A stretch of 62,936 bases of DNA, filler included, from Rhabdomonas costata (Eukaryota): NCBI GenBank assembly GCA_019059605.1. It is 41 parts of 41 records of this genome, joined end to end, with 100 filler letters (N's around TTAATTAATTAA, not from the genome) between each part and the next. Parts side by side here need not be neighbours in the genome. Positions count along the whole stretch, not along the records: positions 1,538 to 2,975 come from JAHMHO010015950.1; positions 3,076 to 4,513 come from JAHMHO010015951.1; positions 4,614 to 6,051 come from JAHMHO010015952.1; 38 more parts are not named here. The stretch is one strand, 5' to 3'. Positions 2,798 to 36,525 of the stretch are shown here, piece after piece (position 1 is the stretch's first letter; each line of letters opens with the position of its first letter). Made by a program: the position numbers and the translations under genes. The notes below the pieces were generated by a model that worked only from the letters and a program-made list of their open reading frames with translations, had not been told where the DNA came from and ran no database searches.

Positions 2798-3274
2798 TTA
2801 GAGTCTTCTACCTTCTACTTTGCAGAACGAGCCGGCGGCTCGACTGCTGCGGGGGGGGGGGAGCGCTGAGTATAGTGGTAGGGGGGATACGCTATGTATA
2901 TTAGTACCGCTTTCTGCCAGGGGCTGAGACCATGGGGGAAAGCGGTACTAATATACATAGCGTATCCCCCCAACCNNNNNNNNNNNNNNNNNNNNNNNNN
3001 NNNNNNNNNNNNNNNNNNNTTAATTAATTAANNNNNNNNNNNNNNNNNNNNNNNNNNNNNNNNNNNNNNNNNNNNGGTTTTTGTTTTTTTAATGTAAAGC
3101 CATGATCTATAAATCATTGTTCGTCATTTCCTTCATCATATTTGAAATCAGATATATTTTTATGAAATGTTATTCTTTTTTCAAAGAAATAATAGGCATC
3201 CAAATCTATATAATCTCGAAATGAAATTGCACAATATGGTATACTTGCCGGTATATTTACAATTATTACAGAAA

Positions 3275-3664
3275 CTAATGTTTTCTCTTCTCTTCTCTTC
3301 TCTTTGTTTCATTGAATTTTGTTATTATTTCACCAAATATACGTTCATAAAAATTCTTTTTGTTTTGTATAAATAAATTAACGTCATCTTCTGTTATAAT
3401 GTATGTATTAAATTTAATTGGATGAAAAATATATGCAGATATATTGTTGTAATCAATTAATGCGAATGTTACACATTTCTTTTTATATTGTTTATAAAAT
3501 TTGTGACATGCACAAGGTAATACTGTATTTGATTTTTGACGTTCAACTATTTTGTTAAAATCATAAAATAAATTTGTAACAAATAATTCATTGTTTTTAT
3601 TACATCTATTTATTTTTTTATTATCTAAAAAAGATAATATAATTGATGAATGATCAATATCCAT
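3275..3664 (-). CDS. AT-rich intronless hypothetical protein, giant-virus-like
   Basis: 129-aa ORF rich in N/K/I/Y; AAAATTGA on the same strand 60 nt upstream; same contig as the RPB5 fragment. Confidence 0.45.
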   Translation of the reverse strand: MDIDHSSIILSFLDNKKINRCNKNNELFVTNLFYDFNKIVERQKSNTVLPCACHKFYKQYKKKCVTFALIDYNNISAYIFHPIKFNTYIITEDDVNLFIQNKKNFYERIFGEIITKFNETKRREEKRKH

Positions 3665-3723
3665 TTTTATTTATTTACTTTATTTGTTTTGTGTTATTTG
3701 TATATCTTGTAACAATATTATTT

Positions 3724-3731
3724 TCAATTTT
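3724..3731 (-). promoter_or_regulatory. AAAATTGA Mimiviridae-type early promoter motif
   Basis: Exact motif upstream of the ATG at 3664. Confidence 0.5.
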
Positions 3732-4143
3732 TATTCAAAAATATAAAATTAAATATTTTATATTTTTATTCTCCATATACATTTATATTATTTTGTCTTG
3801 CTAATTCTCTTATCCTAATAAAACAATCAGAACAATGAGGTAAACTATGTCGTCCTACAATGTACAGTATATTTCTAAAATATATAATTTAATATTTTAT
3901 ATTTTTATTCTCCATATACACCTATATCATTCTGCAAGAAAGTAAGAATACATGCCTCAGGCACTACAGTGATACACCCAATAATATATATTAATGATAT
4001 ATTGATATGATATATGATATCAATATATTATTATATTATATTATTATTATATTTATTATTATATTTATTTAAATAAATATAAATTTAATAAATATTTAAT
4101 AAATATTAATTGATATACTATAAATAAATAGCTGATTCAATAA

Positions 4144-4413
4144 GAGAAAAATTTCAATAATATTGAAATATTTTTAGAAAGAGAATTTACGATAAATTTT
4201 GTAGATCATGTACTTGTACCTCAACATACTGTATTATCAGATAAAGAAAGTCAACAAATAATGAAAGAATACAATATTGAAAAAAAACAAATGCCTAAAA
4301 TATTTAGAAGTGATCCTGTCGCAAGATGTAATAATATGAAAGAAGGTTCTGTATGTAGAATAATACGAAATAGTAGTTTATCAGGTCATTCTATATATTA
4401 CAGACGTGTTGTT
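4144..4413 (+). pseudogene. rpb5: RNA polymerase subunit RPB5 C-terminal domain, 5'-truncated, NCLDV-like
   Basis: IEIFLEREFTINFVDHVLVPQHTVLS...MPKIFRSDPVARC...GSVCRIIRNSSLSGHSIYYRRVV; in-frame TAA at 4141, no N-terminal domain, no stop after YRRVV, very AT-rich. Confidence 0.85.
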
Positions 4414-4431
4414 TTTAAATTATTTATCGTA

Positions 4432-4439
4432 AAAATTGA
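4432..4439 (+). promoter_or_regulatory. AAAATTGA motif, likely promoter of the next viral-type gene
   Basis: Exact motif immediately after the RPB5 homology. Confidence 0.45.
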
Positions 4440-4964
4440 AAAATATATTAATTACATATCTCATTGTATATCAAATAATCGTCTTCCACCCAACACCAAA
4501 CTCACCTAACACANNNNNNNNNNNNNNNNNNNNNNNNNNNNNNNNNNNNNNNNNNNNTTAATTAATTAANNNNNNNNNNNNNNNNNNNNNNNNNNNNNNN
4601 NNNNNNNNNNNNNCGAACGCACACTATATGCACGTCAAAAAGCTCGTGTGGCCACCGGCGCAGACTGTTTTTAGGCAAGTTTTACGGAAAGCTGTCACCC
4701 TGCAAATCGCCTCCAAACCATAAATGCACACAAAAAAACACATAAATTGGGGAGCAGAGGCGACTCCAGATATACGATGTGCAAGGAGAGAAGGGTAAAA
4801 GTGGGCGAGAAAGCCGACGATACTGACGTTTCCCTAGATAAAATAAGGATTGGAAAGAGAAAGGGCCCACTTGTGCACGTGAACATGCCCAGAAAACATA
4901 CCCGTTGACCCGGTTGGGTAAAGACAGGGTGGGGGGCGGCAGAAAAAGGTGCCATTGCACTCAC

Positions 4965-35046: not shown

Positions 35047-35577
35047 GTATTGCCCGCGCCAGCGATGTTTCCTTGGGGAAATCTGCTGTGAAATATTGGG
35101 TTTCGGCAGCTAGTGACATGGCATTCTCTCGAGACACACGACTTAAAGGAGGGGGGAGGTTCAGGAAACTTTCCGCCCTTTTCCGACATTAAAACAACTA
35201 GTGTAGCGCTACATCTCGCCTTTGAAGTTCCTCAGGTTGGGAACTCTGGTCTCTGCAACACCACACNNNNNNNNNNNNNNNNNNNNNNNNNNNNNNNNNN
35301 NNNNNNNNNNTTAATTAATTAANNNNNNNNNNNNNNNNNNNNNNNNNNNNNNNNNNNNNNNNNNNNTTTTTGGTGGACAAAGTGTGTTGGCTGCGTCTTC
35401 AATACAACACGAGCCATCACCGTTGAGGACTGAGCTTGTGATAAACCAGAAATCTTCAACGGGAGTACAGTAGTCTACAATACATCTGTCCACGTCTGCG
35501 GCGGAAAGGGTTCGGCAGTTCGTTGTTGGGTTGCAATGTCGGTCCTGGAAGGAGGGATCGGGGGAGGGAAAACACAC

Positions 35578-36525
35578 CTCAAAGACTTGGATGCACTTGA
35601 ACAGGAATGCCTCGACGGGCTGCAGCTTCAGCGCGGCGGCCTGATTGCGGAGGGCACTCATGAGGCTGCCGTAGTCCACGGCCGGGATCACAACCTTGGG
35701 GAAAAGATCAGAAATGATGCCGTTGAACAGCTCAATATCGTCGCGGAGGAACTTCGGGACGTTGGAGTCGCGCAGGGCGCGCAGCAGCAGCACGTCCTCG
35801 CTCTCGTCGGGGTAGTCCCTCTTCATCAGTCCCGCCGCGGAGATAACTGAAAGAGACACACGGCAACAAGCCTACCCACCCACCCAACATGCCAACCATG
35901 AAAGTAAGTAAGTAAAAAATCCCTCGAAGTCTCGACACGTGTGCAGAGTCCGTTGTTGTCCGTTGTTGTCCGTTGTTGTCACTCCTGGAAGAGGTGAAAC
36001 TCACAGAAAGGACGAACAAAATATCAGAATATTATTTCAAACGAGCTTCCGTTTTCGATTCAAAAGGCTGCATAAAAATAGCCACACCGGAGCTTTCACA
36101 TAAAGAAGGGAAACTGAGCATAATCTAAAACCTGCTGATGAGAACTTCACTTGAGAGACTATTTAAGGGTTCTTCTTGGAACAGGGTCCCCCCAAAAAAA
36201 GGGCGCGGCATTCAAAAAAAGCTGGAGCGAAAAGGAGGCAGTTCCAACCCTTCACGGACAGTGAGGGGGGTGCAGGAAGGTCGCTCCCTCCGCACTGGAA
36301 GGATTAGCTCATAAAGAAAATACACACCAGTGTTCACAGCGCGCATCCCGAAGTCGTAGTGGTCCTGCGACGAGAGCTGCTCGGAGCTCAGCCGGAACGT
36401 CGCCACCATCTTCTTCGCCAGCTGGCGGCTGTTGGAGTACCCAAAACTGAACAGGCGGATCTCCCCGATCATCGCGTAGTCCGGCACCATGCACGCCACG
36501 GGGCGGAACAGCGCCTTCAGGTTGT
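35578..36525 (-). CDS. DNAH: Axonemal dynein heavy chain, AAA1 region (exons 36525-36328, 35846-35578)
   Basis: DNLKALFRPVACMVPDYAMIGEI...LSSEQLSSQDHYDFGMRAV...LLLRALRDSNVPKFLRDDIELFNGIISDLFP. Confidence 0.97.

Follow-up and report, generated by a model that had tools for sequence, protein, structure and literature searches.

An RPB5 gene fragment with viral-type relatives on an AT-rich, primer-bounded contig of the Rhabdomonas costata assembly

Does a short, AT-rich contig in the assembly of the protist Rhabdomonas costata (GCA_019059605.1) preserve a decaying giant virus in the nuclear genome, or is it viral DNA that accompanied the amplified sample? The window analysed here is a stretch of 62,936 bases made up of 41 separate contigs of 1433-1443 bp each, joined by 40 spacers of the form N...TTAATTAATTAA...N. 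The contig in question (3076-4513) is a whole stand-alone record of 1438 bp that carries part of a gene for the RNA polymerase subunit RPB5, and the first-pass annotation of the window had read it as a decayed, endogenous element of the giant-virus order Imitervirales. We find that the gene belongs to the RPB5 family and is truncated as assembled, that its nearest relatives are of viral type and that both ends of the contig are derived from an amplification primer. The low G+C content (GC) that first drew attention to the contig is genuine (21.1% against 37.6-59.0% in the remaining 40 contigs), but the "neighbours" of about 50% GC are not physically adjacent. As the contigs are merely joined, the contrast is true of the assembly and tells nothing about physical linkage. 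Along the contig, windows of 50 nt have 0-40% GC until the primer is reached and 45% in the last window, and its ends share no match longer than 12 nt with the other contigs of the window.

The RPB5 fragment and its relatives

How much of the gene is left, and in what condition? The open reading frame (ORF) at 4144-4509 on the plus strand encodes an RNA_pol_Rpb5_C domain in full (PF01191, E 2.7e-26; 91.6 bits, the cut-off being 23.5), with profile positions 2-73 of 73 matched by ORF residues 18-89, and 20 solved RPB5/RpoH chains match the piece at E <= 0.001. Alignments to solved eukaryotic RPB5 extend into the linker (query residues 6-90 with the Arabidopsis chain 7eu0_E, E 2.6e-17), which indicates that the piece is the rear of a long-form RPB5 and not an archaeal-style short gene. 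Among 15 conserved columns, defined as those with at least 85% conservation across 179 other sequences, it misses only one, with Tyr changed to Cys at residue 62; as many or more are missed by 121 of the 178 other rows, and no stop or frameshift interrupts the 90 codons of the retained domain. Judged by its sequence, the retained domain is not decayed, and its conservation matches that of intact relatives.

The front of the gene is a different matter. Downstream of the stop at 4141, the RPB5 frame has its first ATG only at codon 40, and when a profile of 16 full-length relatives was used, positions 92-207 were found in the frame of the RPB5 ORF while positions 1-91 were unmatched in all six frames of the contig. 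As assembled, RPB5 is without its N-terminal ~115 residues and the rear 45% of the gene is present, which bears out the earlier description of a C-terminal domain lacking its N-terminus. Such a piece is predicted to be unable to make a working subunit, because both the start codon and the N-terminal domain are absent. The AT-only tract directly upstream carries TGA 4111, TAG 4129 and TAA 4141 in the RPB5 frame. A continuation of the homology upstream through these three stops, considered on the basis of tblastn and profile alignment, was rejected as chance-level: adding 4066-4143 moves the score from 141.0 to 141.3 bits, which is equalled by 246 of 1000 shuffles and by 682 of the 1824 other windows of 78 nt in the contig, and demonstrable homology begins at 4144. 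A genetic code with all three stops reassigned was discarded as well, since nothing demonstrates that the upstream stretch is coding. At the rear, the frame lacks a normal stop, as had been noted earlier, and is open to the last 30 bases of the contig; however, this is unremarkable, as a run of this length past the end of the relatives is expected by chance at P ~0.12, and the TAA at 4507 which closes the frame falls in the primer and is therefore not template sequence.

Where does the fragment belong? When 1.84 billion representative proteins were scanned in full with HMMER, 3284 matched at E <= 0.001, and the best of these are proteins of ~200-220 aa, rich in Asn, Lys and Ile, whose last 90 residues are 48-55% identical to query residues 3-90. 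Among the best 27 matches, 26 have PF01191 without the eukaryote-type N domain PF03871, the exception being a protein of Vicia faba in which the C domain is doubled, whereas 43 of the best 150 also carry PF03871. The top identity is 55%, as against 42% for the best single-domain PF03871-positive match. A profile-guided scan of IMG/VR recovered 31 loci with identities of up to 53%, 17 of them on GVMAG-named contigs and the others on viral contigs as long as 1.15 Mb. Every one of the 31 loci has an ORF of no less than 177 aa (177-259 aa, plus one 567-aa fusion), and 26 of these stop at most 11 residues beyond the match. Further family members were located on a 650-kb contig (named RPB5 [uncultured virus]), an 802-kb contig and one of 1.3 Mb. 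The loci of the viral relatives are gene-dense, with genes such as RPB2, peptidase M16 and DUF5847, and have 15-38% GC (17-18% in the closest), matching the make-up of our contig. No near-identical copy of the piece was found in IMG/VR, in the JGI metagenomes or by a single-sequence word-index protein search; among phages, there was no tblastn match in 50,697 records and nothing below E 0.07 in PHROGs.

Phylogenetic trees built without constraint place the query with viral-type sequences. In a tree of 180 rows and 93 columns, from which P0004 and P0137 were excluded as doubled or fused proteins, it lies within a clade of 94 leaves (Shimodaira-Hasegawa-like approximate likelihood ratio test, SH-aLRT, 89) that contains none of the 41 PF03871-positive rows and 14 of the 31 IMG/VR rows. 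In a smaller tree of 64 rows its clade comprises 32 rows, 12 from IMG/VR and 20 unlabelled (SH-aLRT 82). When the query was scored against two profiles, the viral-type one gave 120.8 bits and the eukaryote-type one 103.6; in leave-one-out controls all 11 viral sequences (margins of 17.9-40.4 bits) and all 15 eukaryote-type sequences (12.5-51.7 bits) fell on their own side. The query is of viral type at two of three discriminating columns, and its Asn64 is Asn in 11 of 11 viral rows and Gly in 15 of 15 eukaryote-type rows. Taken together with the base make-up and the neighbours, the tree and profile results make it likely that the contig comes from a giant virus, although the phylogeny amounts to no proof. 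On this point the first-pass annotation, which had proposed a mimivirid-like origin, is supported by best relatives that are viral-type RPB5 proteins from loci of matching GC.

Three further observations concern the relatives themselves. In the 64-row tree seven PF03871-positive proteins (P0028, P0053, P0060, P0067, P0092, P0096 and P0097) cluster with the IMG/VR loci L015, L019, L020, L023, L027 and L028 (SH-aLRT 96). The PF03871 label is hence not purely eukaryotic, and some giant-virus lineages appear to keep a recognisable N domain which the clade of the query is without. In two loci from among the closest viral ones RPB5 is followed at 2-3 kb, on its own strand, by a DUF5847 gene (PF19165; L001:6033-7250, L004:7306-8268), and this gene order may be conserved in that viral clade. 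Finally, the bin GVMAG-M-3300001351-8 holds two different RPB5 loci, L016 and L019, on contigs of 155 kb and 62 kb, so that either one virus has two copies or the bin is mixed.

Primer sequence at the contig ends

Are the ends of the contig biological? Many contigs of the window start with a run consisting of only G and T and end with one of only C and A; a G/T run of at least 9/10 at the expected place is found at 25 of the 41 5' ends and at the same number of 3' ends. The terminal sequences of the RPB5 contig match those of the whole-genome-amplification primer TGTGTTGGGTGTGTTTGG-K10-NN (Table 1), and 17 nt of the constant part of the primer, with one mismatch, are kept at three other contig ends (7691, 24510 and 30654). 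According to PMC10781638, the primer 5'-TGTGTTGGGTGTGTTTGGKKKKKKKKKKNN-3' tags fragmented single-cell DNA ahead of whole-genome amplification, and a close variant with a longer G/T tail is applied to single-cell DNA in PMC6961581. From the primer we infer that the assembly was made from single cells, the primer literature cited here being concerned with single-cell or small-input amplification.

As both ends are primer-derived, the template sequence spans only ~3090 to 4483. A reading of the GC-richer 3' tail as a host-virus junction is ruled out, since the tail is primer. Inside the contig no primer-like stretch was found with a tolerance of up to 5 mismatches. A wider caution follows for this assembly, and we regard it as the more useful practical result of the analysis: the last 12-30 bases of its contigs are unreliable as biology, be it as terminal sequence, as junctions or as stops.

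Other features of the contig and the window

Table 1. Features of the RPB5 contig, in window coordinates
Feature	Position	Strand	Remarks
Primer-derived 5' end (trimmed form)	3076-3089		last GG of constant part + G/T-only 10-mer (10/10) + 2 bases
64-codon open frame, probably rear of ORFan in shifted frame	3114-3308	-	chance openness P ~0.003; no Pfam family
ORFan gene, front part	3278-3664	-	129 aa from ATG 3664; chance openness P <1e-5
(TTCTC)4 pentanucleotide repeat	3283-3302		ORFan frames overlap at 3275-3308
TAAAAATTGAAAA with AAAATTGA at 3724-3731	3721-3733	-	59 nt from ORFan ATG; early-promoter-like
Direct repeat, copy 1	3734-3795		62 nt; contains AT palindrome; hairpin -7.9 kcal/mol, z -2.2
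Direct repeat, copy 2	3873-3934		89% identical to copy 1, 139 nt apart; fold no better than shuffles
Imperfect palindrome, strong hairpin	3980-4045		66 nt, arms 85% complementary; -23.5 kcal/mol, z -4.6, 0/200 shuffles equal
AT-only low-complexity tract	4046-4143		directly upstream of RPB5 fragment; 0-4% GC in 50-nt windows starting at 4026 and 4076
RPB5 fragment, linker + complete C-terminal domain	4144-4413	+	~positions 117-207 of 211-position viral-relative profile
Open frame past end of relatives	4414-4483	+	~23 codons; chance P ~0.12 in contig's base make-up
Second TAAAAATTGAAAA with AAAATTGA at 4432-4439	4430-4442	+	16 nt after last domain-aligned RPB5 codon (4413)
Primer-derived 3' end	4484-4513		reverse complement = 18-nt constant part (2 mismatches) + G/T-only 10-mer + 2 bases

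What else does the contig encode? Besides RPB5 it carries an ORFan gene which, as assembled, is distributed over two overlapping frames (Table 1). Its frameshift is likely to be located at the (TTCTC)4 repeat, where one TTCTC unit more or less would join both frames, and could be natural or the result of polymerase slippage; pentanucleotide repeats are classic slippage sites, in nature as well as in PCR. No relatives of the ORFan were found in Pfam, PHROGs, a 5.8-billion protein index, IMG/VR or the JGI metagenomes; against the 31 viral loci the best E was 0.61, and the best Atlas score of 0.79 is below a meaningful level. Giant-virus hallmark genes, such as those for the major capsid protein, PolB and the A32 ATPase, are absent from the 1438 bp of the contig.

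Between the ORFan and RPB5 lies a spacer with repeats. The direct duplication that had been placed at ~3752 and ~3891 is real, but it is longer than the ~40 bp first reported, and each copy closes a start-less minus-strand frame of 40 codons ending in VYGE. The strong 66-nt palindrome follows no recognisable gene, and no hairpin was demonstrated behind either the ORFan or RPB5. No tRNA was found in the spacer, and its sole Rfam match scores 16 bits against a threshold of 70; a scan for bacterial-type promoters and terminators gave counts near the shuffled expectation and was not used. Hairpin-forming motifs at gene 3' ends, together with a high prevalence of AAAATTGA upstream of genes, are given as marks of the Mimiviridae in PMC6163669, and it is conceivable that the palindrome has a role of this kind.

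The motif AAAATTGA occurs twice, as the first-pass annotation stated, but promoter position can be checked at the minus-strand site only. The distance of that site to the ORFan ATG falls inside the 150-nt upstream zone in which, according to PMC5294985, the promoter element of mimivirus early genes lies. The plus-strand site is directed off the contig and would serve a gene beyond its end. The 9-mer AAAAATTGA has a chance P of 0.02, and the exact 13-mer TAAAAATTGAAAA is present twice, which is above chance (0 of 2000 simulations), with 18 of 20 bases common to both sites. By analogy with the Mimiviridae (PMC5294985, PMC6163669), TAAAAATTGAAAA may function as a promoter; with a single checkable gene on the contig, neither the motif nor the hairpin can be called prevalent.

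The remaining contigs of the window resemble mostly non-coding eukaryotic DNA. One encodes a fragment of a dynein heavy-chain motor at 35371-35871 on the minus strand (Pfam AAA_6, E 8.6e-24), which indicates that the main organism is a eukaryote with dynein, and 12 further long open frames from other contigs match no Pfam family. The contig at 19993-21430 has the second-lowest GC of the window (37.6%), and its longest stop-free frame is 79 codons. The contig at 1538-2975 contains about four tandem copies of a ~60-nt unit at 2560-2800 (…gggatcccagggaacac…catcgctccctaac…), as well as an inverted repeat near its 3' end at 2860-2975 (…gtatagtggtagggggg… / …ccccccaacc).

Origin of the contig and its meaning

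How did such a piece come to be in the assembly? The likeliest reading, to which we give about an even chance, is non-integrated viral DNA with partly artefactual gene breaks. The contig would then be DNA from a mimivirid-like giant virus (order Imitervirales, broadly understood), present in a protist sample that was amplified with GenomePlex-type primers before assembly, the viral DNA being cell-associated (infecting, ingested or co-sorted). The preserved stretch would comprise an ORFan whose ATG is preceded at 59 nt by the early-promoter-like element AAAAATTGA, an AT-rich spacer that holds the duplicated 62-nt element and a strong hairpin, and the rear 45% of the gene for RPB5, which here would belong to the multi-subunit RNA polymerase encoded by the virus. 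The apparent gene breaks would at least partly be artefacts, because the domain is conserved and the breaks lie in error-prone sequence, namely the AT-only tract and the pentanucleotide repeat. Low-complexity and microsatellite DNA is error-prone in PCR-based amplification and in short-read assembly.

Several results weigh against a viral origin of this kind or against the non-integrated state. The approximately unbiased (AU) test, on 64 rows and 93 columns, does not reject a tree that joins the query to 15 core eukaryote-type rows (p 0.52), the eukaryote-constrained tree being 0.65 log units better. The viral margin of the query in the two-profile test, 17.2 bits, is just under the range of the viral controls, and the pattern that retrieved the IMG/VR rows was derived from the alignment of the query itself, which biases these rows towards it. 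Finding the AAAATTGA 8-mer twice in 1438 bp does not exceed chance expectation (P 0.12), nor is the motif enriched in the 11 closest viral loci (43 against 36.4 expected, with 28 of 200 simulations reaching 43). Moreover, the truncated RPB5, the frameshifted ORFan and the two VYGE frames fit real decay as well as artefact, and no internal primer remnant marks a chimeric joint. The RPB5 search and phylogeny by which the first-pass annotation meant to tell a giant virus from an AT-rich eukaryote thus come out on the viral side in the free trees and the profiles, whereas the AU test leaves the eukaryote grouping standing.

That grouping would suit an internal or last exon of a nuclear RPB5 gene from an AT-rich eukaryote, whether contaminant, prey, symbiont or nucleomorph, with the AT-only tract as an intron ending in the AG at 4143-4144. 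The ORF does begin right behind a stop and without an ATG, and its alignment to solved eukaryotic RPB5 reaches into the linker. We nevertheless hold this to be very improbable: nearly all of the best 27 matches are of viral type, the viral profile leads by 17 bits, Asn64 is the residue of the viral rows, no N-terminal exon was found in any frame of 3671-4143, the frame runs past the end point of every solved eukaryotic RPB5 that was matched, and a relative-less ORFan lies in opposite orientation 480 bp upstream. Slightly less improbable is a natural fragment or spare partial copy in a functional free giant-virus genome with an intact RPB5 elsewhere. A domain that is well conserved yet start-less would fit such a copy, as would the adjacent local duplication, a sign of a rearranged stretch, and the two different loci in GVMAG-M-3300001351-8; on the other hand, IMG/VR and the JGI metagenomes hold no close relative for comparison.

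The endogenous alternative deserves more attention, though we consider it doubtful. It holds that a decaying Imitervirales fragment resides in the protist nuclear genome, where RPB5 lost its front half and its stop after integration and its neighbour was frameshifted. In favor of this proposal, the start and the N-terminal residues of RPB5 are absent from every frame of the contig, the ORFan is split at a microsatellite, start-less frames lie inside the duplicated element, and a replicating virus is not expected to have an essential polymerase subunit broken; moreover, PMC12455990 describes giant endogenous viral elements (GEVEs) that have eroded in protists. Yet conserved residues have not been lost in excess, the domain is free of stops and frameshifts, the three in-frame stops upstream lie in sequence not demonstrably homologous to RPB5, the base make-up is that of free viral relatives, and both breaks occur at error-prone sequence. 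Nor does the contig show the physical continuity with host DNA that is asked of a GEVE: both of its ends are primer, no host-like flank is present, and there is no internal shift to host make-up. The endogenous state claimed in the first-pass annotation has accordingly found no evidence in its favour, and its claim of decay is weak: a truncation and a frameshift are present as assembled, but the domain itself is not degraded. Somewhat less probable still, in our estimate, is a mimivirid-like genome piece that entered the nuclear DNA of an uncultivated protist with dynein recently and has only begun to erode.

Among known systems, the nearest counterparts are giant-virus RPB5 (RPABC1) proteins, namely that of L001 from GVMAG-M-3300013133-4 (53%) and the metagenomic proteins P0001 and P0002 (55%), with which the fragment shares the alignable linker and C-terminal domain (query residues 3-90), the signature (YNM and ICK/VCR) that is common to the viral clade and an AT-rich, intron-free make-up. 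Unlike these relatives of 177-259 aa, which have an N-terminal domain and a start codon, the window copy begins at about profile position 117, has no ATG, runs on for ~23 extra codons and has Cys at query residue 62 in place of a nearly invariant Tyr. Archaeal RpoH/Rpo5 (e.g. 1hmj_A, E 2.3e-17) consists of the same C-terminal domain alone, in ~80 aa, which shows that an archaeal polymerase can use the domain with no N-terminal part. In contrast, the window piece has a linker of eukaryote/virus type (residues 3-17), no start codon and viral nearest relatives, and for these reasons does not read as a designed short form. With the GEVEs of PMC12455990 it has in common giant-virus genes in a eukaryote assembly and possible erosion; however, GEVEs are defined by continuity with host chromosomes, whereas this contig is 1.4 kb long, stand-alone and primer-ended. 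A further likeness is to giant-virus sequences obtained from single amplified protist cells: in PMC12644861 and PMC6792452, whole-genome amplification of uncultivated protists yielded viral contigs alongside those of the host.

In its present form the contig contributes a single divergent RPB5 piece and a single ORFan. Were it recently integrated, it would provide a host-virus link for a giant-virus lineage known from metagenomes only, with nearest relatives at most 55% identical. More generally, if the association is real, through infection or integration, it would tie such a metagenome-only lineage to a particular protist, and links of this sort are scarce.

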